Part shown: piece by piece, positions 1,727 through 46,378 of the stretch
Layout: the number at the start of each line of letters is the position of its first letter
Position numbering within the stretch: the stretch's first letter is position 1
Position numbers and translations under genes: made by a program
Notes under the pieces: generated by a model
Databases searched by the model: none
What the model was told of the DNA's origin: nothing
Seen by the model: the letters and a program-made list of their open reading frames with translations, nothing else
From: Ascidiella aspersa
Lineage: Eukaryota
Length of the DNA stretch: 64,000 nt
Assembly: GCA_963924565.1 (NCBI GenBank)
Contig: OZ004612.1
Coordinates: forward strand, 13,020,001 to 13,084,000
Reading direction: 5' to 3'

Positions 1727-3767
1727 ATGCCAAGAGAAATAATTACTTTACAAATTGGCCAATGTGGCAATCAAATTGGATTTGAATACTGGAAACAGCT
1801 TTGTCAAGAACATGGAATAAGACCTGATGGCATACTTCAGGATTTTGCTACTGATGGTACAGATAGAAAAGATGTTTTTTTCTATCAGGCTGACGATGAT
1901 CATTATATCCCAAGATCAGTATTAATCGATCTCGAACCAAGGGTCATTAACTCGATCAAAAACTCTGAATTTGCTCAGCTGTATAATCCAGAAAACATCT
2001 ATTTATCGGAGCATGGAGGGGGTGCTGGAAATAATTGGGCAGCAGGATTTCACTCCGGCGAAAAAATCCATGAAGAGTTGTTTGACATAATTGACAGAGA
2101 GGCAGATGGTTCAGACAACCTTGAAGGATTTATGCTGTGCCATTCGACTGCTGGTGGAACCGGTTCTGGTCTTGGTTCTTACATGTTAGAGAACCTTAAT
2201 GATCGCTATCCCAAGAAGCTAATTCAGACATACAGTGTTTTTCCCAACCAGGATGAAGTGTCAGACGTTGTGGTGCAACCATACAACACCATGCTTACAA
2301 TGAAGCGACTAACGCTGCACGCAGACGCCACTGTAGTCTTAGACAATACTGCCCTAAATAGCATTGCCACTGACCGTTTGCACATTCAAAATCCTTCCTT
2401 TTCGCAAATCAACAAGATGGTGTCGACAATCATGTCCGCCAGTACAGCCACTCTTCGCTATCCAGGCTACATGAATAATGACTTGATTGGGCTTGTTGCC
2501 TCACTTATTCCAACACCAAGGTACTTATTAAAAGCTTCATTTTTAAACATCTCTTTGGTATACATAGTTGATTTGCGTATTTTAATCTATTACTCTGTTA
2601 GACTTCAATCATCCTATTTTAGTATCCTGTTAATATAAACGTGCATTTACTTGTCTCAAGTTGTTTTGTGACGTAGTCTTACAGCTAGCAATGTTTGACC
2701 ATTTAGGCTTCATTATTTGATGACTGGTTACACTCCACTCGTCACTGACCAAGCCCAGGCATCAGTCAGGAAAACAACAGTGCTAGATGTGATGCGGCGT
2801 CTACTGCAACCCAAAAATATGATGGTGTTCACCGGGCGTGAAAGAATGAATCAGCATTGTTACATTTCTATCCTGAACATCATTCAAGGTGAAATTGACC
2901 CAACTCAGGTTCACAAAAGTTTGCAACGCATCAGGGAAAGGAAGCTGGCCCAATTTATTCCATGGGGACCAGCTAGCATACAGGTACAATTAGTTGAAAT
3001 AAACACATTTAATTTATTCTATAAGCTCTTATAATTTTATTTTTGGGCTTGTGATGTGTTTACATATATTATATATGTTTGAATATAGTGCAACTACATT
3101 TCATAAGGCCTGAAAGACTGGCCTAAATTTGTTGAATGTAAAACAGCAAATCAAAAACGAACAATTTATTTAAATCTATATTGTTTTTCAACATAGTAAT
3201 TGACTAGTTCAAATCTGTCTTGTTTAAGCCAAAACATACCAAGAATACCAAATCTTTTGCAAAAATACCAGTTTCTAGGACTTGGGCATGCTTTCTGTAA
3301 TCCAAAGTCAGCAAACCTTTTTTTCTTTTGCTTTTTTCGATAAAGCCAAGGAATAAACAAAAGTATCATCCCTGGTGATGTTCCTAAGGGTGTGCTCGTA
3401 ATACTACAACCGTTATCAATTGTTGTTTTCCACCAAACATCACCTTGCAGTTACATATTTTTTATTCTGCTTCCGTCAGGTGGCGCTGTCACGCAAGTCG
3501 CCCTACGTGCCGTCGGCTCATCGCGTAAGCGGCCTTATGCTGGCCAATCACACCAGCATCAGCGCACTGTTCAAGCGAGCCGCTCGCCAGTTCGACAAGC
3601 TGCGAAAGCGCGAGGCCTTTCTCGAGCAGTTTCGCAAAGAGGCGATGTTCACTGAAAACCTGGACGAGATGGACGCTTCGCGCGAAATTGTCCAGCAGCT
3701 GATCGACGAGTACGAGGCCGCAGCCACGCCCGACTACCTTAACTGGGGCGAGGGCGGCTCCACGTAA
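1727..3767 (+). CDS. TUBG1: Tubulin gamma chain, 3 coding exons (1727-2520, 2707-2983, 3480-3767)
   Basis: [19 protein letters not shown]-terminus, tubulin signature [16 protein letters not shown] and VVVQPYN motifs, C-terminal [18 protein letters not shown] introns join in frame. Confidence 0.97.
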
Positions 3768-31400: not shown

Positions 31401-34011
31401 TTATGGGTTAATATGGTTTAATTGTGTCGCAGTTCCTGACTTACAATACTTCAACGATGATTTAAAAAAAAATTACTCTCAACAAACACAAAAACTTTGT
31501 CAAAAGTCATTATTTGTCAAATTTGACTTTATTAAAAATTTTGACTTTATTGTAAATTTTAACTTTATTTTGACCTATAAACTTAGAAACAGTCCCCTAG
31601 GTGCTGGAAACAACTTTATTCTTTGATTCGTGGACAGACGAGCTCCTTAAAATTTTTTAACTTTATTGACTTTTGCGGGCCCTAGTCATCAGTTAATAAA
31701 TGCACTCAAGATACGTATACTGTACATCCTTGTTGCTGTTGATAGGTTATAATGACACAAAAGTTTTGTCATATACCAATAGCAAGATGTACACTGACTT
31801 GACAAATTCGAAACCCTGTATTTAATATACACTGTAAAATTGTATTTCTAGTGCACGCGACGCACCTTCACAGGATTACTTCGAGCTCGCAGAAAGCCCG
31901 GAATGTTTTCACGGCAACTTTACCAGCAGACCTCTACTCGAAACTCCAAAGTCGTCTGCCAAAAAGAAGCTGGACCTCGTTCGAACTCCGAGCGCTGAAT
32001 CACCGCCGCGAAAGAATCCGAGTCCTCTGAAGAAGAAAAAGTGCATCAGCGACCTCCAGGACCCTTGTTCATCTGCAGAGGTTTTAAGCACGAAGGAAAG
32101 TGAAAACGTTGAGGACAGTAATATCTCTCAGTCAATGGCGCACGATAGGGAGATAATACGTAAAGAGGATGCTCAAAACAATCTACAAACCCAATCTCTG
32201 ATTGTAAATACCAAATCAGAACTTAAAGACGCAGAGAAGAAAGCGTCTCCAAAGGTCGAAACGAAGCCAGAATTGGATTTAGAGGACGTATTTGCCGACG
32301 CGGAGGAGGGTGCCGCCCATTTGGCTCCGGTGTCGGATCAAACGCCGCCCCATTCTTCCACCTCGTCTACAAACGATGTCGCCACCTGCAGCCAGCAATT
32401 GATCCATCACGACGATAGCACTCTCCAGCGGCGCGCGCCTCATGCAAGTCGTTCGACAATCCGGGCCAGAATCCCGGCGGCCGAGCTCCCAGCACCAGGC
32501 TCCACTTTCCCGTGCATCGTCACACACATAGAGAGCCACAACGTAGTGTACGTGCGACGACTGCCGGCCAGCCAGTGCGGTCCGTCGGATGACGACATCC
32601 GCTATCTGCCGCCACTCGAGGTGATCGAACCCGGGGCGCCGTGCGTTGCTCGCTACTCGGTCGACGGCCGCTGGTACCGCGCTGAGGTAAAGTAGATCTG
32701 TTGATCTGTGCTTGTTAATTTTTATGTAACATATAAAGTGCGAAAGGAATTGCGTTCGCGAATTGGCCAGCTTTTAGGTCGGTGTAGAAATATTCGGGAC
32801 TGGTATCGGAGATCAGTAGATCAATACTTCCCAACCTTTTTCAGTTCACGACCCACTTTAAATGCATGTTTTATTGTTCGACCCACAATGAGGTATGGCC
32901 AAACAAATAAGGCTACACTAGTGCATCTTTACTACTGGCGTACGTACTGAAATTGTTAATGCAACAACACATCTAATTGTTAAGTATTTGTGATATTGTT
33001 GCATAAATGTTACGTAAGTGTAATGTAATAATTTCCCGATCTAATAGAAAACTGTAACATTTAGAAATGCTTCGCGATCCGCCTGAAATAGCTTCGCTTT
33101 CGCGACCCACTAGTTGGGAAGCACCTCAGTAGATTACATAACGGCCTGATGCATATGGAGAAACGCTGGTTTACATTGATATATATATTCACTTCTGGGT
33201 GTTCGCACCAGAGCATGCCGGGGAAATAGCTAATATACACTTCCTGAGTCTATTCACCGATCTAACAAATAACCTTTTTAACTGAATTAGGAAATTAATC
33301 TGGAAAACGATGCCAAACTCGTGAAATTAGTTTTATTTAAACCATCAACCGCTACACCAAACCCTGAATCAATATAAAATAGCTGTATACTATGTGCCTC
33401 ACATATGTGTACCTGTGCCATCCGACCAAATAGCCAATTCCGCAATTCAACTGTACTTGTACGAACGCTATTCGGCAGACAACGCTTTTGTTGTTTTCAA
33501 ACTTTGTCGTTTACTAACTCAACTTCCATATCTGTAGAACAAAATAAATCTGTAGAGCAAAGATTTGAGTCTCCATTTTTAACATCCACGTCCCCATCCT
33601 GCATTTCCTACAGTATAAAATAGGTAATTTTATATTTACTTTCAGGTGATCAAGTATTACCGCGGCCAGGGCCTCGCCAAAGTGCTGTACGTCGACTACG
33701 GCTTGCACGAGGTGGTTGCGGTACAGGACATGGTACGCATGCTGACCGCCGAATACAGCCGCCGACCCGCCCAGGCAATTCAGTGCACGCTCTTCGCAAT
33801 GCCACAGCCAGCTGACTTGATGCTAGCCGAGGCTGTGCTTTTAAATGCGCTAGCAGCCCTCATAGGCAACCAGGAGCTTGAGTGCCGCGTCCACTCGGTT
33901 AATAATGATATGTGGGATTTTGCCCGTCTCTGCGTCAACCTCTATTCGGGCAAACCACGTCGTCTGCTTACCGACCAGCTTATGGAGGCTCTTTTTGGCG
34001 ATGTGGAGTAG
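19449..34011 (+). CDS. RNF17: RING finger protein 17 / TDRD4-like (RING, B-boxes, coiled coil, multiple extended Tudor domains), about 19 coding exons
   Basis: Exon 19449-20068 has RING (CKICC...CGHTFCQKC...CPTC) and two B-boxes (CSEC...CLQC...CSKC; CHKH...YCVDD...CRDC...HASH). Tudor motifs: KWYRCKV/YIDYGN (~22970-23203), WYRAVI (26200-26419), YVDYGN (26985-27080), WCRARI (29618-29724), DGRWYRAEV (to 32686), YVDYGL (33646-34011). Confidence 0.88.
23638..24474. mobile_element. Non-autonomous DNA transposon with CTCGCC/GGCGAG subterminal arrays
   Basis: TIRs cagggttg / caaccctg; flanked on both sides by atttt; many ctcgcc/ggcgag motifs near both ends. Confidence 0.75.
26524..26847. mobile_element. 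hAT-like MITE
   Basis: Ends caggtgttcctcaac / gataagaacccctg; ggacccc motifs. Confidence 0.6.
30940..31684. mobile_element. hAT-type MITE with 8-bp TSD
   Basis: TIRs tagggcc / ggcccta; TSD gtcatcag at 30932-30939 and 31685-31692; repeated tttRactttatt subterminal motifs. Confidence 0.85.
32822..33126. mobile_element. hAT-type MITE, reverse-complement relative of 17468-17755
   Basis: Ends caatacttcccaacc / gttgggaagcac; TSD cagtagat at 32814-32821 and 33127-33134; internal similarity to 17468-17755. Confidence 0.8.
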
Positions 34012-35371: not shown

Positions 35372-35680
35372 GTTTAGACACGTGCAGGTAAACATAAAAA
35401 ACGCAAACTCTATTTTTTTTTAGCAGAAATGCATTTCAAACTATGAACGCGAATCCAACTATAAAAATATACTAAATTAAATTTTTTTTAAATGATTTTA
35501 AAATGGAAAAGTATAATTATGTTAGGGGGTTCACCTGGTTGCAAATAACAAAAAACATTTTGTGTGGCGGGAACAGGATAGTGTTTTGGTTTTTTTTTTT
35601 ATTTTTCGGAACCATAGAGGTAAAATTTGTTTGTAGTTAGATTTACCTGCTGAGCTAGAAATTTTGTGAGCATATATAAA

Positions 35681-38600
35681 ATGGCTGAATCTGAATCTGC
35701 ACCCAATCTACCATGGGTTGAAAAATATCGCCCTAAGTCTTTGGACGACCTCATATCACACGAAGATATTTTAAAAACAATTCGACGCTTCATGAAAGAA
35801 AATCGTTTGCCGCACTTGCTATTCTATGGACCACCTGGTACCGGTAAAACGTCGACAATTTTGGCTTGCGCAAAACAGCTCTATTCACCAAAACAGTTTA
35901 ATTCCATGGTGCTTGAACTGAATGCCTCTGACGATCGGGGTATCGGCGTAGTGCGTAACCAAGTAAGTCTGTTAAGCTGTTTACAATGTCTCAAGAGCAG
36001 GGCCGGGGAACCTATTCCAGCGCGCCAAGTTCGCACAGGTGGCCGGGGGCACTGGTCTAGAATCCTACCACAACACACATTATTTGGGTTAGGGTGCTGG
36101 TTAGCGATTGAGTTGTGGTAGGTCAAATATTATTATTAAATAATCAATATAAAAATACTTAAACCCAAACGTTAACCATCACCCTAACCATATACGCGTT
36201 GATTTAATAATTGTTTCAACGCACTTTTATTTTAACACCAACGAAACGAGTTGTCAAGGTTTAAATTGCAAGGAAGGTGAAACATATGAGAATAACTGTA
36301 ATAATAATTATACTTGATCCTAGATCAGCATTCAGGGCTGTAACAATCACCTGTGCGACCCTGAAACGTTGGATTTGTTGTACATCATTGAATTGAAAAT
36401 TAAAATAGACCAATAGCTTAGGAAGCGCACGGCTTCGAACAAAAATCAGTCAGCAAGGTCTAAAACTTTAAATCTAAATATGCATTTCGCCATATAAAAA
36501 TGGCATCATCAGTTTATCTTAAGTATTCAAATAGAATCTATTCTTGCTGACTGATTTTTGTTCGAAGCGGTGTGCTTCCCAAGCCAAAATGAATTTCCTT
36601 GGACTATTTACAAGGCTAACAAAGTAATTAAAATCGAAATAAATCATAAAAGTGATGCAAAACTTGGATGTTTTTAAATTTATTACTACCACCAGCCAAG
36701 CCCTAATCATTGAATAATCACAGATGAGTGCAAGCATAAAAGTGCAATTCCGGCAAATAGCCAATTCAATTTCTTATAGCACTTAACACGTATAACTATA
36801 TTTGTACAACACCGACTAATTTTATATTAGCCTATATGAAGATCCTTGTTTCAAACTCTTAGGTTCTTTTTAACCATATATATATATTGATACTGAATCG
36901 AGCATAATTTTCAAGCTTCACTATTTTGATGTTGTTGGCAATCACAAAATTTAATTAATTTTTTCTGTCTGCAGCTTAGCATCAAGTGCGAAAATGAACA
37001 TAAGTTCTAAATTTGTTTTTCAGGCCAATGCATAGTATTATTAACTGCTCTCTGTGTATATATTTAAAAAAAGAAGCAAAATACAGGTTTATGCACCACC
37101 CCACAATCTTATATTTTGCCTATTCAAATGTTCTTAAAGCAAACATTTTTTTGTTGTGAGAAAAGTAGTTCAAAAAATGGAAGTGGCTTATAGTGGAGTT
37201 TGCACTGTAGTGGAGTCAGCATCCATCTCATGAACATACGGCCCAGCTCAAGAGATTACTAAACATTAAAATTCAGTGCTCACTTATACTATTTAAAATC
37301 AATTAACCTTAAAAGATGAATTCTGTGGCATATTACCACTAAAAGTTGATAGGTTAGTGCGCGTTGTTGCAGAAGAACTTAAAACATTTATTTTTTATAA
37401 CTTACTCTCAACAAGGAAAGTAGGTTTGGATATAAGTTTATGTATATTTTTAAATGACTTAAGGCCCAGTTAAAGTTATTTGCAAAATAACATAATTTGC
37501 CAATCAAGTCATTGGCAAAAAAGAAGAAGAGTCTATTTTTATGACTCCCTTTCTGGTATTATTGCTTAATATAGAATGACTCACTTTCCCAATCACCATT
37601 TATTTTTATAAAAATATTTCACTTATGCTTAACTTGCTTTTGTGTCTCTTAAAAAACTACCTAAGCTTGGACTAAGTTATTTTGTTATGTTTTATTCTAA
37701 GTGCCTTAACAAAGGTGACTAACTAGTAATTTCTTTAGTCTAGTTACTTCTTCGTATTTTTTCTCTGCAATTGAAACTTTACTTTTGTATAGATTTTAAG
37801 TTTTGCAAGTACAAGAACCATCTTTAATCAAGGATTTAAAATGATTATTTTGGATGAGGCAGATGCAATGACAAAAGATGCACAAAATGCATTGAGACGA
37901 GTTATGGAAAAGTTTACTGAAAACACAAGATTTTGTTTGATCTGTAATTACTTAACTAAGGTTTGTCTAATATAAATTTCCATTGTTATAAAGGTATGTC
38001 AAATGTGATATCATTATTTAACTTTGGAGAAGTAAACACTTAATACATAAACTTTACTTCCATATTATTCAGTTTGTAACACTACCTGTATTCACCATCT
38101 TGGCTTGCATATAAATTGTTTAATAAAAATCTATATTCTAAATTTATATAAGTAAGTATGTGTTTTACCTTATTTTTTTGATGGTTTGAAAAGGCCGTTG
38201 TATGATATATTTTAATAGTGGCTTGATATTTTATCTTAGAAAGTTTAAAGGAATGCAACATTTTCTTATATAAACAATAATGAAATAACAGATGTAAATT
38301 ATGTACTTTTCTATTTTTATTGGATTATAATATTTAGATTTTTGCAGCTGAAATGTATAGTTATTTTTTTAGATCCTAGTAAGATTCAAAAATATCTTGC
38401 AGACACTTAAAGCATGTCCTAATTCTATAGATTATCCCAGCTATCCAGTCCAGATGCACCCGCTTTCGTTTTGGACCATTGACAACCGACCAAATGAAGC
38501 CACGTCTTGAGCATGTAATTCAGGAAGAGAATCTTAAAGTGACCGATAGTGGAATGCAAGCAGTTGTCACACTTGCATGTGGTGATATGAGAAAGTCACT

Positions 38601-39170
38601 TAATATTTTACAAAGCACTTCAATGGCCCATAGCGAAGTTAATGAAGACACAGTATACACCTGTACAGGTAAAGAATTAAAAATTAAAATTGATGTGCTC
38701 ATCATTTATTTTTTCTTATAAGGTATATATGTATGTTTGCCTTATTTTCAATGTATTGCTTTAACGATGTACTAAAATGAGTGATATCTCTTTTGTAATA
38801 TTTATATATGAATATTTATTTGTTTGTAAATTAAAAAAAATTAGCATAATTCAATTTTTTCCAAGGCCACCCCAAGAAAAAAGACATAGAAGATATCTTG
38901 GATTGGATGCTTAACAAAGACTTTACTTCGGCTTATCAAAGCGTAATTAAATTAAAGACTGAAAAAGGAATGGCACTTCAGGACATTTTGCAACAGGTCC
39001 ACTTGTACATTCACCGCATTGACTTTCCTGTCAAAGTGAGAATTCACTTGTTGGACAAAATGGCAGAGATTGAAGATCGCATTGCCGCTGGAACAAACGA
39101 GCGCTTGCAAACTAGCTCGATGGTGGCTGCTTTTCAACAAGCCAAGAACATGACTGCAGCTAATGCATAA
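35681..39170 (+). CDS. RFC5: Replication factor C subunit 5; exons 35681-35962, 37793-37960, 38431-38668, 38866-39170
   Basis: [10 protein letters not shown], Walker [19 protein letters not shown], Walker [22 protein letters not shown] motif ([13 protein letters not shown]), RFC5-type C-terminus. Confidence 0.95.
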
Positions 39171-39459
39171 CTTGTTATTTTAAACTAATGTTATTTCCTA
39201 ATTTGTGAAAGCAGATTGACACACAATGGTAATGTGGTAAAAACGTTTTTGTTAAAACACACATGAATATTGACCAACAAAGGCTATACTAAGTAAAAAA
39301 TGTTTGAGTTGTAAATCTGTATTGCCATTTGGAATTTTATTTCAAAATATTGTCGTTTGTACAAAGTAAGACTCGATGATGTCATTTGTGTATAACATTG
39401 CAATCATAAGTTGTTTTGGTTACATTACAATCATACCTTACTTACATTGCAATCTTAAG

Positions 39460-39491
39460 TTGCATTCAACCTTTATTTACCATCTTTTTAG
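39460..39491 (+). promoter_or_regulatory. Splice acceptor (possible SL trans-splice site) upstream of the ASDURF-like ORF
   Basis: cctttatttaccatctttttAG, 15 nt before the ATG at 39507. Confidence 0.5.
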
Positions 39492-39506
39492 AAAATTTTA
39501 ATAAGG

Positions 39507-39701
39507 ATGTCTGAGCAGGCACTAAAGGTGCAGCAAGTGTTGCAAAGTGAATTGGAAAGTCTAAAGGAAGGCGCCAAGGTGTATGAGCGCCAGCATAACA
39601 GCAACATACTTTTTCTGTCTAACAAAAACAAGACACTGTCTGATTGCAAGAAGTTACAAGCTGAAATTAAACAGTCACTGCCACCAAATAAATACACTTA
39701 A
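39507..39701 (+). CDS. ASDURF: ASDURF-like prefoldin-type microprotein (64 aa)
   Basis: ELESLKEGAKVYERQHNSNILFLSNKNKTLSDCK resembles the human ASDURF core as I recall it ([34 protein letters not shown]). Preceded by a pyrimidine tract and AG acceptor at 39490-39491. Confidence 0.8.
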   Translation: MSEQALKVQQVLQSELESLKEGAKVYERQHNSNILFLSNKNKTLSDCKKLQAEIKQSLPPNKYT

Positions 39702-39725
39702 AAAAGGTCACAAACTGTTGAGTTA

Positions 39726-42700
39726 ATGGTGAGGTTCATAGCTTCTTTTTCATGCCATTACTCTGGTAAAAAATTATTTGCTATGCTAAATCCCTTTTTG
39801 TTCAAGTCACGCACTGCTAACTCGCCATTAGCAATTGGAAGGCAAAAGCAAATGTATACTACCAAGCAGCATATGAAGTTATCAAAGCCACCAAATATTT
39901 TGCTTTATTGTCCAATGGAAGATCAAGAATCTGTTAAGACTTTGACAAGTTTTGTTGAAGTTTGTCTTGCTGCAAACCAGTATACTGTGTATTCAGTTAA
40001 CTCTGATGTATTCTACAATGATCCTTGGATTGAAACTACAACCCTCTTGGTTTTGTGGAATTCTAATTTAAATAATCAAAACTTAAATATGGTTAAACTA
40101 AATGCCAGACTTCAACAGTATCTTGGAGCAAAAGGAAAGATATTGAGTTTCATGCCAAGTGTGATGCAAGATGTGAAATTTTGTTGTGTTGAAACAGATG
40201 TTTCTAAAACATCTGAAGTAATAATGGATTGTGGCAATTTTGTTGTAAAGTGCTGGAGTGGTATTTACTTAGAACAAAATTTGAAACAAACTGTGGTTGC
40301 AAGAATTTTACATAAGGAAAGTAAACATATTGTGGCAACTATCAACTCGGAGAAGACGGTGGTTACAACATCGGTAAGAAAGTCTCAAAATTCATAATGT
40401 GAAGTTTGGAAACTAGTTTTCATTTTTATGAAATGAATTTAAAACAATAAACACTAGCTTAATATCTGTTTTTTGGGGGATTTATTTATACTTTCAACGG
40501 TTTATCCAGTTAAATTTTGGACACTACAAGTAATTTCAGTTGGCTATTATTAAGGTCATATGGTAATCTATTTGTGGTGCTATTTACTATAGCTAGTGCC
40601 GTTTAATTAATTTTCACATCCTTATAATTTCACATCCTTAAACATGATTGAAGTTCACCATACACCTACCTTGAAAGTATAACATTAAACTATAATTTGT
40701 TCTGTATTTATTTGTTAGCTGCCCCTGCTAGACTTAACACATAATGATGATGCTACTGACACAGTTAAAGTATTCAAGAGTCTGCTTCAAATGTTGATGA
40801 TTCGAATCAGCACTGAACAAGAAACTGTTGGAATATTAAAAAATACAAATAATGTTCCAGAGGGTGCAGGCTTACTTTTTGCCACTTCGATTAATTTACA
40901 AAACCAGTTTTTGTCATGGTAAGCAGCATTTACGTATTGTGTATCATGAGAAGCATTTTTTTAACAAGAGCTTTTGGCAATTCATAAAAAAAACTTTTCT
41001 TGAGGAGGCTTATAGAAGCTTTATATGTACACTGTTTTATTCAAATTAATTACAAAACTTGATTTTTTTTAACATTAATTCTTTTGTAAGAGATATTTAG
41101 GTCACTTTCACATAAGAAAAGCTTTTTTAAAGTTTTATTTTCTGCTATAGTTCAATTTAGTTTATAAAAACAGTCTTGCTTCCCGTAAAGTGTTCACACA
41201 TTTTTTTGTACAATCTAGGTTTAAACTTGAGCCTCCTGTGTACAATGCTGGAGGATTGAAGCTAATTCCTGCTGTGAATTATCAGAAAACAGGTTCACAT
41301 CTTTAAAACTTAATCAGTCATAATTCATTTTCAATGGCTGTTATGCTATAAAGAAATACAGCAGTGACTGTTTTGCAGATCTGCAACATGAGGAATTCTT
41401 GTCACAAAACAGCTTCACAGTTGGCTACTCTGCCAAAGGTGACCCCTCAGGAGAAGAAGGTGTTTGTTGTGATTTTAACTGGCAATGTTATAGAGATAAC
41501 CTGAAGTCCGATGTTTATGGGCACCATGTTGTATATGCAGATGTTATTGGATCCACTATGACTGTATTTGACGGGTTGGTCATTAATGTTCTATGGGTCG
41601 CACATTGTTTTTGATATATATACAACTAATGTCCTTCCATTTCTAAACAAACATGTTTTTTATAGGTTAAGTTTGAAGTTGCCTGAAAGGTCTGGAGTTG
41701 TTGCCATCGCCAAACAACAAACAAAAGGACAAGGTTTTTAGTTGACAAACAAAAAAAAACTTTTCAAATTATTATTTGTTAAATATAGTACTCTAAATGT
41801 GTGAAGAATAATCCTTTTGTTAATCAAGGTATATACAATGTATTTTAAAATGTTAAGGGGGTATATACAATGTATTTTAAAAAGGTATATACAATGTATT
41901 TTAAAAAAGCAAACTAGCAATTCTGGTCAGACACATTAACCAGATCTTAAAAGATATATATATATTTCGCCAACTAAGGCATCTTCAGTATATCTGAATA
42001 AAAACATATATACTGTTGCGTTTGTTTTTATTCAGATATACTGAATATGCCTTAGTTGGCGAAATATATATACATCTTTTAAGATCTGTTTAATGTGTCT
42101 GACCAGAATTGCTAGCTTTGCTAGATTATTTTGATGTATTTTGAAAGGGCAATCTTTGTATTATCCAAGGAACATTGCCACTTGTTTTAAATTTTATAGC
42201 TATTTATCTATTATTCTTTTCTGTTTTTCTTTTGTTATTACCCTTTTAATTAGAGGGGAAGTAATACATTTAATTAACAGGCCGTGGTGGTAACAAGTGG
42301 CTAAGCCCGGTTGGTTGTGCAATGTTTACTCTGGTTGTGGTGATACCTGTTGCTTCCAAACTTGGAAAAACCTTGCCCTTTATCCAGCATATAACTGCTG
42401 TTGCTGTTGTTCATGCTATTCGAGAAATGCCAGGTCTTGGGGTAGGTTCAAGCAATTAAACAATATTAGTTTTATATTGACGATACCGCTTAAGTGCTAC
42501 ATCTTTTTCAATATTTTGACTTTAAAACAAATGTTAATCACTTGGTATCCACTGTTGTCTGCTGAAGTATAACCACATTAACTTGGTAAAAACATCGGTG
42601 TTGTTGATAATCTAAAAACTTTAGGATAAGTAGTCAAAGGCTCAAAAAACACTATTTTAAAACTATCTACCATCGTCAAAGCTTTAGAATTAATAAACAA

Positions 42701-44587
42701 TTATAAAACAGCAAATAACAAATTTCTACTGGTCCTATTTTTCCAGGACGTCGATCTTAGAGTGAAGTGGCCCAATGACATATATTTTGGAAGTTCACTA
42801 AAGTTGGGGGGCGTCGTTGTAAAATCGACCATGTTCCGAAACAACTGTATTGCTTCAATAGGTGAGCTTTGCGCCAAAAATTTAAACTCGCCTAATAGTT
42901 CGTACTGGACTGCATACAGGTGACTGTTAGACTTACCCATCTTCCAATACACGACGACGTGATTAACTCTTCACAGAATTAAACCATGCAGAACAATTAC
43001 ATATTCAAGTGATAGATACGTTAATTTTTATTATGTATAGTTTCTGGAAGGGATATCCTACCATCAAGTGTCAAGTTGTAATATCGGTGCTAGTCCGACT
43101 AAAAGTGGTATCACTGTTAATCTGATAAGAAATGTTATTTCTTTTCTTACATAAAATTTTTGTAAGGGAAATTAAGGCCGCTTTTACACAATTATAAGCT
43201 TTTTAGCTTCATGTTGTACCACATTTAAATTTAGGTTGCAAAATAGTCTTGGATACCATTAAGTTAACACAATCCGCAGCGATACCATCTATTTTTCTGG
43301 CTGGAGAATAGTAACGTAATTTGCTTCAGTACAGATTACAATTTGGCAAAATATCGGGTTTCGGAAAACAATGTCGTGCATCGGACGTCCTCAATTTCTG
43401 AATTTTTTTAGAAGCTGAAATAATTTCGGTTTTTAACTGGCATCTGTGATATTCTTACAGGATGTGGCGTCAATATTGCGAACGAAAGACCTACAGTCTG
43501 TGTGAATCAGATTTTAGAAGGTATGTAGCAAAGAGTGGTAAACAGCTTTTTTACGATTCAGCTATGGATAATAATGCTTTGAACGAATTAAACTCTACTT
43601 TTATAGACGAATATCACATTGCCCAGAAGCTACAGACCGAAGAAGTTATTGCAAGAACTCTGACGGCCTTGGAAAAGCTAATTTTTGATTTCCAGAAGCA
43701 TGGCTCTGACCAGTTTCTTGAACTCTACTACAAATACTGGCTGCATAGGTTTAAAAAGGCTTTTTGCATTTTTAAAAAATACTTTAACTGGTGGTTGCAA
43801 GCTCGATGGCTTGTCCATGTAGTAATGTCCGTGGTAAAACCAAATTACTTTACGTTTTTACTAAGCGGTCCTTGACATGACAAAATTGCCGCGTAAACAG
43901 AGAACAAGAAAGGATGTCCTTTACTTTTTAAGGCGATTATGTTTGGTCAAGCGAGTGAAAAATAGCAAAAATGCGTTGGGAGCTTTAAATATTGTGCTAG
44001 CAGGCTATGGATGTCTGCTAGCTTTGGACGGAGCCGATACCCAATTGCAAGTGGTAGTATCTATACTCGTCTGATACTACTGTGGTATCCGTGGCGATAG
44101 GTAAACCTAGGCAGCGATTTCTGCCTTAAATGGTTAATTTATGAAAAAATGGTAAGTTTACAACAGACATAATAATTTAATAAACTATTTTTACACTAAA
44201 GCAGAGGGTATACCTAAACTGGGTAAATTCATCTGAACGTTGAGTGACATCTATTTTACTTGTAGAATAGCGAAATAACGTTATTTGGTACCAGATCGGA
44301 CAACGGAGTTTTTTGTCAAATTTCGAGTGTCGGTATCGGAATTAAGTTGTCAAGTATTGGCCATCGCTAGAGCTGGCAATTAATGTTACCTTCTCCTTTT
44401 CGGCAGCGGTTCTTACGTAAACGTGCAGCTGGAAAAGGGGTCAGGAGAAACACTGAACGCGTTGGTGGCTGGCGTGGACGACTGCGGTTACTTGAGGGTT
44501 CGTTTGGACGACGGCAGTGTGAAGACACTACATCCCGACGGAAACAGTTTCGATTTGACGAAGAATCTGGTCATTCCGAAACGTTGA
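39726..44587 (+). CDS. HLCS: Biotin--protein ligase / holocarboxylase synthetase; exons approx. 39726-40373, 40719-40918, 41219-41292, 41379-41574, 41666-41733, 42281-42441, 42747-42861, 43461-43520, 43607-43748, 44407-44587
   Basis: KPPNILLY N-domain motif, [21 protein letters not shown] biotin-binding loop, VKWPNDIY...[21 protein letters not shown]-terminal [19 protein letters not shown]. Confidence 0.94.
41827..41907. repeat. Three tandem copies of ggtatatacaatgtattttaaaa
   Basis: Read directly; abuts the left arm of the palindromic hammerhead element. Confidence 0.85.
41908..42133. mobile_element. Palindromic element with two divergent hammerhead motifs (HLCS intron)
   Basis: Arms of about 95 bp are reverse complements. 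Minus arm 41952-41995: AGAUAUA-CUGAAGA-U-GCC uuaguu GGC-GAAA-UAUA-UA-UAUAUCU. Plus arm 42034-42077 has core CUGAAUA. Confidence 0.85.
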
Positions 44588-46378
44588 GAGTTGTTAAAGA
44601 CGACCAATTTTTCTGCGGCCGATAGCGATTTTACCCGAATTTCTTACCGGAACTATGAAATATTTTGTCACAAGAACTCCTAAAAGATTTTAGACATGCC
44701 GTCACAAAACTACGTCATCCTGGAGAATCACCTTATCTTAAGAAACCTAAGGTTGTCGTTCGGTCTCGTGTGCAAATATGCAACAAATGTGGATCTAAAT
44801 ACCAGGGCTGGGAAGCCGCAGTAAAACAGCATTGACTCCGGCTCCAGCTTCGGAGCCATTAAACAAATAACCAATTGCTCCGGTTTCAGCTTTAGATCCG
44901 TAGCATTATTTTTTTTAAAAGTTGCTTCAACACAGGCTGAATTGAGTTACATTTGCCACACTAAACTCTTCAGTAGTTTTCATTTGAACAGCTTAATATT
45001 GTTTCGAGCTGAAGGTAATTGTCATAGCTTAGCTTTCAAAAGTTAAAAATGCCTTCTGCTCCAGCTCCCGCTCCACTAAAACATTAAAGTTGGCTCCAGC
45101 GAAAATAATTGGCTAAACATGTTTCGCTTTACAAATGTGAGGTTTATACAAGCTTGGTTTGTTTCCGTAAATTTTCTTTGTGAAGATTTGCGTGTGAAAT
45201 TGGTTAGTGTCATTAGATGTAATTTGGAGACTTGTTGACCTTTTTTCAATGAAAAAAATACATCTATGAAAATGTTTGTGTCTGCTTTCGATTTGCAAGT
45301 ATAGAAAACAAATAGAGTGTCGAAAACCTTTAAGTTCACACTACTATGCCTCTTATTTAGTATTTTATTTAATAATAGTGTATTACGTTAACCTAACAAC
45401 AATTACAAACTTATTGTTATGTCAAGATTGTTCAGAATTCCAGATTATGACTTAAAACGTCAAATATAAAGCTTGTTCGTGGTTTATTGTTTTTCCAAAA
45501 ACTGATACTGCTTTTTGTAATATATGTAATAACTTACGCAGTTGATCCTCCGTATTGTATGCCGTATACCGTATAGGCATCAACGCATCGCAATTAATGA
45601 ATTTGGTATATAGGGTGTGTGAAAAATGTAAACCAAATTGTTCTTTGGTGTTTTTGCAAGATTAAAAACTGTCGCGTTTTTGGTATTATACAGTTTGGAT
45701 AAGGTTTTTCTGTTTATGCGATACAGCTGGAAATTTGTTAAATATTTCAAGCTGTAAATTGGCGACTTGTAATTAGCTTGTAAGAATTGTCTACTAAACT
45801 TAACTTTTTTCGTGAAGAATTTTCAACAAAACTAAAAAAAATTCAACAAAATTTAGCTGAGCTTTACGTCTGTTTGCCTCAACGTAATAAGAAGTTTTTT
45901 AGTAGGCCTATCATTTGGAAGTATGGCGAGGGTCAGAATAAGAGTTAAACCGGCGTGCCGTAGTTGGGTGACCCCTGTATTAAACAATCATTATGAAAAG
46001 CCAATCTGGTTTTAACTACAGAATTTTATTAGAAGATCAAAACAATACCAACTTTAGCAAAAAGTTAAAACATGTACAAGTGAACTGAGACGGATCAAAG
46101 TGCAATATCGCGAATACCATTTACACATGTCATTGCCACAGCGTTCGGGCCAGGGATGTTTTGAAGACAGCACGCGGAAATGACATTTTGCTTCCAAAAT
46201 GTTCTGGTGCCAAGTTGCATAGTTCGTTCACACACACGCACACACAGCCGATCGCCGAAGCGCCATAAATTGAAGTAAATGCACGTTAACAATTTAAAAT
46301 CGTTGAAGCTAAAATTTAAGGGATTGACATAATCGTTGGACATTATTTATGTACAGACATCATCTTCAGTCAGGCATT

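Follow-up and report, generated by a model that had tools for sequence, protein, structure and literature searches.

Introduction

Among conserved proteins encoded by uORFs, ASDURF is a standard example, and in the papers we consulted its partner is always ASNSD1. In human cells the protein belongs to the prefoldin-like module of the PAQosome (PMC11009110). Ciona carries 1,310 operons that are resolved by spliced leader (SL) trans-splicing and encompass about 20% of its genes (PMC2760879). In all of 19 Ciona operons the upstream poly(A) site lay right against the acceptor, one apparent exception having been settled by RACE, while alternative upstream ends lay up to 67 nt upstream and unresolved dicistronic cDNAs have also been described.

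Here we examine a locus of the ascidian Ascidiella aspersa at which ASDURF is located between RFC5 and HLCS. In tunicates ASDURF has a different downstream partner, HLCS and not ASNSD1, and in A. aspersa the two probably share a single bicistronic mRNA. An operon by itself would be ordinary among ascidians, and the possible role of RFC5 in driving the other two genes is considered separately below.

Gene content of the locus

The window, a stretch of 64,000 nt, carries RFC5, ASDURF and HLCS on the + strand with gaps of 336 nt and 24 nt, and gene models, Pfam matches and coordinates all agree with the three same-strand ORFs listed in an earlier note on this DNA. RFC5 (35681..39170) starts at ATG 35681, stops at 39170 and encodes 330 aa in four exons (35681-35962, 37793-37960, 38431-38668 and 38866-39170) with GT-AG introns. 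The product matches Pfam Rep_fac_C, and splicing is backed by a spliced RNA contig (X3 record 7) and 13 spliced reads at 38864 (read set X5). Directly 5' of the RFC5 RNA start region lies GGCGGGAA (35566..35573, + strand), which we take to be an E2F-like site; the RNA contig starts by 35610, the reads being cut at a skipped repeat (35579-35609).

HLCS is present in single copy and extends from ATG 39726 to a stop at 44587, encoding 614 aa in ten exons (39726-40373, 40719-40918, 41219-41292, 41379-41574, 41666-41733, 42281-42441, 42747-42861, 43461-43520, 43607-43748 and 44407-44587). All nine introns are GT-AG, the exon 1 donor is supported by seven spliced reads at 40373 (X5), and the protein shows 43% identity to the Clavelina biotin-protein ligase. 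The 3' UTR (44588..45268) is given up to the limit of the RNA contig (X3 record 10). There are two candidate start codons, Met1 at 39726 with T at -3 and Met20 at 39783 with G at -3. The long form, which would begin at the near, weak start, would have a basic, presequence-like N-terminus with a putative role in targeting.

The small ORF at 39507..39701 is intronless, encodes 64 aa and is the only ASDURF of this genome. It scores 37.9 bits against Pfam ASNSD1-SEP (cut-off 27), and the orthologue of a second, distant animal (L028) scores 38.5 bits. The structural model (pLDDT 88.5) shows the helix, hairpin and helix of a beta-prefoldin fold, and the best eight Foldseek rows are all prefoldin chains with TM scores of 0.66-0.78, none at E <= 0.001. 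A HMMER search with ASDURF yielded 66 matches, one of them (P0001) a repeat artefact, and a word-index search with the 64-aa ORF as query gave no match. In the closest homologues the start lies no more than a few residues from Met 39507. ASNSD1 lies on a different contig (G000:C3, near 18.6 Mb), where an ASDURF-like ORF was not found in about 7.6 kb upstream; it was retrieved with PF13537, since PF00733 retrieved three ASNS paralogues only.

Conservation in a second species

The gene order RFC5, strong acceptor, intronless ASDURF, 9 nt, HLCS recurs in L028, and both ASDURF and HLCS are conserved there as proteins. Identity to L028 at the three codon positions of ASDURF is 62, 76 and 36%. HLCS exon 1 shows just 32% identity, yet gene order and junction anatomy have been kept. 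In L028 the RFC5 stop and the acceptor are 1470 nt apart, a CpG-rich patch (o/e 1.14-1.33) precedes the acceptor, and the ASDURF ATG follows it at 29 nt. Two further species probably link ASDURF with HLCS, on indirect evidence, and in Clavelina the two genes probably adjoin one another. Clavelina HLCS has NCBI records, whereas the ASDURF that probably neighbours it was retrieved only as an unnamed Logan/ENA protein, so tunicate annotation may be missing ASDURF. We found no paper in the literature describing ASDURF paired with HLCS in tunicates.

The ASDURF-HLCS junction

The spacer between ASDURF and HLCS (39702..39725, + strand) is in frame, stop-free and without a usable acceptor. Its AGs at 39706 and 39722 match the median AG in score, and those of the L028 spacer score in the worst quarter. 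Mean RNA depth is 7.9 over ASDURF, 7.0 over the junction (6.98 over the spacer) and 5.4 over HLCS exon 1, with neither a step up nor a dip past the ASDURF stop (X5). Because depth is even across the junction, where both species lack an acceptor, the shared bicistronic mRNA that the earlier note envisaged is likely, and the simulations and the unbroken contig described below point the same way; among the X5 reads no single molecule or read pair was seen to span ASDURF and a spliced HLCS junction.

A fusion of the two proteins by stop read-through was considered and rejected because, although the two ORFs share a frame in A. aspersa, the L028 spacer contains a second in-frame stop. Comparison of an ASDURF profile with HLCS proteins gave no convincing match in the five of five scanned (best 2.0 bits). 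A separate HLCS exon 1 query found no match to longer proteins among 403 candidates. A TAATG stop-start overlap from the internal ATG at 39583 was also discarded since it is not conserved.

The RFC5 3' end, gap RNA and the acceptor

The main RFC5 RNA 3' end lies near 39290, about 200 nt 5' of the acceptor. RFC5 depth drops from about 14 to 2.7 near 39285, and successive 56-nt bins at the gene end give 18.1, 11 and 2.2 (X5); the 3' UTR is accordingly drawn at 39171..39320, with the main end at about 39285-39320 and the exact site inferred. A candidate poly(A) signal, AGTAAA (39292-39297, + strand), is present where RFC5 RNA falls off. The earlier note was correct that no AATAAA follows RFC5, in that the hexamer scan found none in 39171-39520, and it omitted both this AGTAAA and an AATAAA in the last ASDURF codons (39687..39692, + strand), after which depth does not drop and which L028 ASDURF lacks. 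However, its use of the absence as an argument for an operon is weak because the scan likewise found no AATAAA at the HLCS 3' end.

A minority of RNA, thin and of spliced type, covers the RFC5-ASDURF gap. This low-coverage RNA (39284..39491, + strand; depth 2-4, against 0 in introns) carries three upstream ATGs and may represent read-through or an outron. A single spliced RNA contig is unbroken from 35610 to HLCS exon 2, but assembly across two genes falls short of proving one transcript, since overlapping transcripts would look the same. The read data comprise 92 reads, drawn from 6% of the run of a single library, and RNA depth cannot separate RFC5 read-through from a private promoter. Depth simulations compared transcript models by their share of accepted simulations: read-through with SL addition took 0.31-0.32, a private start 0.35-0.39 (with the SL-plus-outron form pooled within that class) and read-through only 0.23-0.25, with 6-8% for HLCS trans-spliced separately, 0-1% for an RFC5 end abutting the acceptor and 0% for no gap RNA. 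Depth therefore gives no preference for read-through with SL addition.

The unpaired splice acceptor at 39472..39491 (+ strand), 15 nt 5' of the ASDURF ATG, is a predicted SL trans-splice site. Scored with a matrix built from 12 acceptors of RFC5 and HLCS, AG 39491 ranks first among the 33 AGs of 39171-39790 and belongs to the top 1.2% of AGs across the window, and its counterpart is the best of 84 AGs in L028; the strong acceptor claimed earlier is therefore borne out and conserved. The genome is also of the ascidian type, as had been supposed, with 573 matches to Ciona-type SL genes against one in the control, many of them within a 584-bp array, and the SL sequence is identical to that of Ciona. 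No SL-clipped reads are listed in X5, where only about 0.2-0.4 were expected, hence this comparison has almost no power. A possible relict leader, ATTTTAATAAG at 39495, matches 10 of the 11 letters of the SL end and is the only such + strand site in the window, but it was chosen after sighting and is missing in L028, so it is likely to be a chance match and was rejected.

Proposed mechanism and alternatives

Our preferred reading, which is tentative and stands at slightly less than an even chance, is that a bicistronic ASDURF-HLCS mRNA, with its 5' end generated by predicted SL trans-splicing at 39491, arises by read-through of a leaky RFC5 3' end. RFC5 RNA mostly ends near 39290 and a minority spans the gap. 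It is about equally probable that this gap RNA originates at the RFC5 promoter or elsewhere. RFC5 driving ASDURF and HLCS as a single operon is possible. The 16-nt leader would then probably be joined at 39492, which would remove the three upstream ATGs so that the ASDURF ATG becomes first. Depth and anatomy suggest that ASDURF and HLCS likely stay together, and HLCS might then be translated from Met1 or Met20, reached by leaky scanning or by reinitiation.

Alternatively, the ASDURF-HLCS mRNA may have a private promoter that lies within the RFC5 3' UTR or shortly after it. The transcript would then carry either a short outron, removed by trans-splicing at 39491, or a plain 5' UTR, and RFC5 would be a mere neighbour. 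This is somewhat unlikely, although it draws on RFC5 having its own main 3' end, on the share of simulations taken by the private-start class and on the 1.5 kb gap with a CpG-rich patch in L028. Moreover, CpG islands are absent from Ciona promoters, and putative outrons in Ciona average 438 nt with a peak near 100 nt, so that the gap has room for a private promoter. The CpG-poor sequence that the earlier note described does run unbroken across the junction (o/e 0.25-0.61 over 36661-42440, against about 0.9-1.2 around the RFC5 start), but for the same reason the missing CpG patch argues only weakly against a promoter; in the gap itself o/e is 0.47, and 3 CpGs observed against 6.4 expected is a weak test. 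Conservation of the RFC5 adjacency in L028 and the failure to find a conserved non-coding motif in the gap (best blastn E 0.06) also count against a private promoter. The link between RFC5 and ASDURF has some spliced-type RNA in its favour and is weaker than originally claimed, as most RFC5 RNA ends early. A strict Ciona-type junction, with the RFC5 3' UTR reaching 39491 and abutting the SL site, is the rule in Ciona and was implied by the claim of little or no intercistronic DNA, which is not supported here: depth declines about 200 nt early and the abutting model is almost absent from the accepted simulations. AT-rich 3' ends lose coverage, an effect outside the depth simulation, and a minor abutting end may exist, but as the main form this arrangement is very unlikely.

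An ordinary three-gene SL operon, in which ASDURF is polyadenylated near 39706 and HLCS is trans-spliced alone, appears quite improbable. The AATAAA at 39687 is 14 nt 5' of AG 39706, single-exon genes are frequent in Ciona operons (38% vs 15%), and a 230-nt ASDURF mRNA would presumably be poorly recovered by the library; against this, the hexamer is not conserved, the spacer AGs are mediocre here and poor in L028, and the even depth and small simulation share fit badly. Still less probable is that no trans-splicing occurs and both proteins are made from unresolved read-through RNA starting at RFC5. The continuous contig and about a quarter of the accepted simulations accord with it, but ribosomes would need to get through a 330-codon ORF and past seven ATGs, and a strong unpaired acceptor precedes ASDURF in both species. 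The earlier note also raised cis-splicing from an ATG|gtaatg micro-exon (39226..39228, + strand) to 39492, which would extend the ASDURF N-terminus. Such a micro-exon candidate exists and is in frame with ASDURF in A. aspersa, but it is rejected as the main form and its use is very unlikely, given that no joint is listed against 4-8 reads expected (P 0.015-0.27), the contig at depth 61 is unbroken, the L028 acceptor lies in a different phase relative to the ATG, and the nearest homologues begin close to Met 39507.

Comparison with known systems

As in Ciona SL operons (PMC1488885; PMC2760879), unrelated housekeeping genes are packed on one strand here, the SL is the same, an unpaired acceptor precedes the downstream gene and the upstream gene lacks AATAAA. 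Unlike them, the main upstream 3' end lies about 200 nt from the acceptor, neither abutting it nor within 100 nt, and no acceptor is present at the last junction, which seems to stay unresolved.

The 'gene symbiosis' model of STREMI-SLC35A4 (PMC13303939) similarly involves two older independent genes on one transcript, one of them intronless, but at the present locus the intronless member is the upstream microprotein and retroposition is only putative. Dataset EV6 of that study gave no match for 'Ciona' or 'Styela'. Arabidopsis HCS1 is likewise a holocarboxylase synthetase with a uORF and long and short N-termini, but its uORF is described as small and its isoforms reportedly arise by alternative splicing (Puyaubert 2008), whereas at the present locus a conserved chaperone subunit is the product of the uORF and any targeting of HLCS is putative.

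Another parallel is the vertebrate ASDURF-ASNSD1 bicistronic mRNA (PMC13303939), in which the same microprotein family also lies just 5' of an unrelated enzyme ORF, with a spacer of 22 nt in the hawk transcript compared with 24 nt here and 9 nt in L028. The systems differ in that the partner here is HLCS, with ASNSD1 elsewhere and without an ASDURF-like ORF, that ASDURF is intronless and shorter at its N-terminus where the human gene has four coding exons, and that the mRNA is probably SL-capped. ASDURF may have become an upstream cistron twice, with ASNSD1 in jawed vertebrates and with HLCS in tunicates, the tunicate pair being kept unsplit in an SL operon because ribosomes leaving ASDURF choose between the near, weak and the farther HLCS start; we consider this unlikely, but if true the ASDURF ORF would set the mitochondrial versus cytosolic share of biotin ligase. 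On a shared mRNA, the genome's sole HLCS would need ribosomes to reach it past another ORF, in an animal able to split operons by trans-splicing. A conserved pairing with another enzyme in the sister group of the vertebrates would show that ASNSD1 is not what the pairing depends on, and the tunicate pair provides a natural setting in which to ask why such proteins remain on bicistronic mRNAs.

Gene models of the RFC5-ASDURF-HLCS locus

The placing of RFC5, the small ORF ASDURF and HLCS in the earlier note was confirmed, with all coordinates checking. RFC5 (35681-39170, + strand) encodes 330 aa from four exons and HLCS (39726-44587) encodes 614 aa from ten, with 43% identity to Clavelina biotin-protein ligase. 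The ORF at 39507-39701 scores above the Pfam ASNSD1-SEP cut-off; its predicted structure is a helix-hairpin-helix fold, and the eight structures ranking closest to it are prefoldin chains, with no match reaching E <= 0.001. ASDURF and HLCS each have one true match in the genome, the other two of the three ASDURF matches carrying stops and lying under the cut-off.

Upstream of RFC5, on the same strand and separated from it by repeats, lies a Tudor-domain gene (31838-34011). Introns carry MITE-like inverted repeats at 41911-42118 (96-nt arms, 96% complementary) and 36416-36584 (42-nt arms, 93%), both with high depth in a DNA-like run. A 343-nt segment of the HLCS 3' UTR (44597-44939), missing from the reads of run X5 and the contigs of runs X2 and X3, is a presence/absence insertion; 43874-44231 and 45513-45847 are skipped in a similar way.

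Conservation of the ASDURF-HLCS pair

A metagenome scan reduced 190 pattern matches to two loci, both from one species. In one of these, L028, from a distant species with the same gene order, the last RFC5 exon stops at 1689, the acceptor lies at 3159, and an intronless ASDURF (3189-3419) is separated by a 9-nt spacer from HLCS, starting at 3429. Within L028:3160-3428 a 4-codon uORF follows the acceptor and an ATG-TAG start-stop abuts the HLCS ATG. Between the window and L028, identity is 62/76/36% over the three ASDURF codon positions and 32% for HLCS exon 1. In both species the best-scoring AG of the region lies just 5' of the ASDURF ATG (15 nt in the window, 29 nt in L028), while AGs in the ASDURF-HLCS spacer score at the median or below. 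The window also shows, directly 5' of the ASDURF start (39495-39505), a 10/11-letter resemblance to the spliced leader (SL) 3' end which is not conserved in L028.

Comparison of contig records, covering 28 of the 66 ASDURF-search hits, provided indirect evidence for two further, probable links: ASDURF P0003 and HLCS exon-1 protein P0080, the latter of the Clavelina cluster, are each on a single 2151-nt Logan/ENA contig, and ASDURF P0070 and HLCS piece P0081 have a common longest contig of 9425 nt. The conserved tunicate ASDURF-HLCS pair is the real finding of this analysis.

Transcription of the locus

About 6% of raw-read run X5 was read, yielding 92 reads on 38780-40430; they are stranded, on the + strand, with zero depth in the intron bins checked. 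Mean depth fell from 13.9 at the RFC5 end to 2.7 over 39284-39451, and stood at 7.9 in ASDURF, 7.0 across the ASDURF-HLCS junction and 5.4 in HLCS exon 1. Spliced reads covered RFC5 intron 3 (13) and HLCS intron 1 (7), and no other joint or loose end with at least 3 reads occurred over 38780-40430. These two junctions account for 20 of the approximately 34 reads diverging from the window for at least 20 letters; scattered poly(A) or adapter sequence may account for the others. At this depth 0.2-0.4 SL fragments are expected, too few to anticipate any. A single 2317-nt contig of X3, a run with spliced contigs whose kind is not on record, extends from 35610 into HLCS exon 2, with RFC5 exon 2 inferred from a 166-nt gap among the listed pieces; runs X2 and X4 look like DNA.

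A rough simulation of depth, in which priors were flat and the insert size was assumed, compared six models. Of the accepted simulations, a private start took 35-39%, early poly(A) combined with read-through and SL addition 31-32%, read-through only 23-25%, HLCS trans-spliced separately 6-8%, an abutted junction 0-1% and no RNA in the gap 0%. From these shares and the depth, therefore, RFC5 has a main RNA end of its own, and ASDURF and HLCS likely have one mRNA in common. The earlier interpretation, a single-promoter operon resolved by trans-splicing at 39491, is partly supported: it holds as regards an ascidian-type genome with SL genes and a probable shared ASDURF-HLCS mRNA, but the little or no intercistronic DNA that it assumed between RFC5 and ASDURF is not supported, given the small share of the abutted model.

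Two sources of the shared mRNA come close to a tie. In a leaky operon most RFC5 transcripts would end near AGTAAA at 39292, while a share would read on and be trans-spliced at 39491, which would remove the ATGs at 39300, 39376 and 39379. A private promoter would instead start the mRNA independently. The leaky operon is opposed by findings in Ciona, where passages of PMC1488885 give abutting ends as the rule and parts of PMC4691747 describe short outrons and promoters free of CpG islands, as well as by the long gap of L028 with its CpG-rich patch. Because adjacency to RFC5 is conserved and CpG depletion is continuous, we weakly favour the leaky operon. The three-cistron operon itself is about an even bet and, if real, would be ordinary.

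Spliced-leader genes

The Ciona SL sequence from PMC1488885, with GT added, yielded 573 genome matches and the reversed control one, so the A. aspersa genome is of the ascidian type, with SL genes. Many matches fall within a tandem array of a 584-bp unit (contig C3, 5.22-5.45 Mb), where a spacer of about 7.7-8.4 kb breaks in every few copies. Post-donor sequences of the SL RNA genes vary among loci L013, L016 and L017. A perfect copy of the 16-nt SL at L026:1862-2690 (contig C1, near 20.833 Mb) lies about 50 nt 5' of the ATG opening a frameshifted ORF, which we take to resemble LINE ORF1; this locus seems to be a retrocopy made from an SL-capped RNA.

Origin of the ascidian ASDURF

An apparently intact ASNSD1 gene, identified by motifs which we take to be characteristic, lies on contig C3, away from ASDURF. 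An ASDURF profile gave nothing significant (best E 0.057) in 9.9 kb at this locus, which included about 7.6 kb of upstream sequence. The genome also has three asparagine synthetase paralogues with introns (L005-L012; contigs C3, C5 and C6), and an intronless, GC-rich frame of 538 codons (L019, C3:22153260-22154873) presumably resembles amidophosphoribosyltransferase.

Human ASDURF has four coding exons. Since snail isoforms P0012 and P0016 diverge at the column just past the conserved 'CK/AK', which is also where vertebrate predictions P0021 and P0063 drop out of the alignment, an old intron is indicated there, missing in both ascidians; retroposition would explain the intronless gene, and ordinary tunicate intron loss would do so equally. 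Amphioxus does have an ASDURF protein, and its ASNSD1 model carries an 84-nt leader without ASDURF. On the basis of this one predicted transcript we lean towards two independent origins of ASDURF pairing rather than a partner swap, with the caveat that RefSeq splits the ASDURF-ASNSD1 pair in hawk as well.

Comparison with known systems

No report of ASDURF-HLCS pairing was found in the literature searched, mostly from outside subscription journals; the locus may appear under gene ids in supplements on Ciona operons and TSSs. SL-resolved operons of Ciona are described in sections of PMC1488885 and PMC2760879, the vertebrate ASDURF-ASNSD1 bicistronic mRNA in part of PMC13303939, and a role of ASDURF in the PAQosome in part of PMC11009110.

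In each of the four N-termini of HLCS examined, two Met lie within 20 residues, and the first 45 residues include 5-9 basic and 0-2 acidic ones; in both species with DNA, position -3 is T at Met1 and a purine at the second Met. These features suggest that HLCS may be made in long and short forms, a possible likeness to Arabidopsis HCS1, for which a passage of PMC3820309 citing Puyaubert 2008 reports long and short forms.
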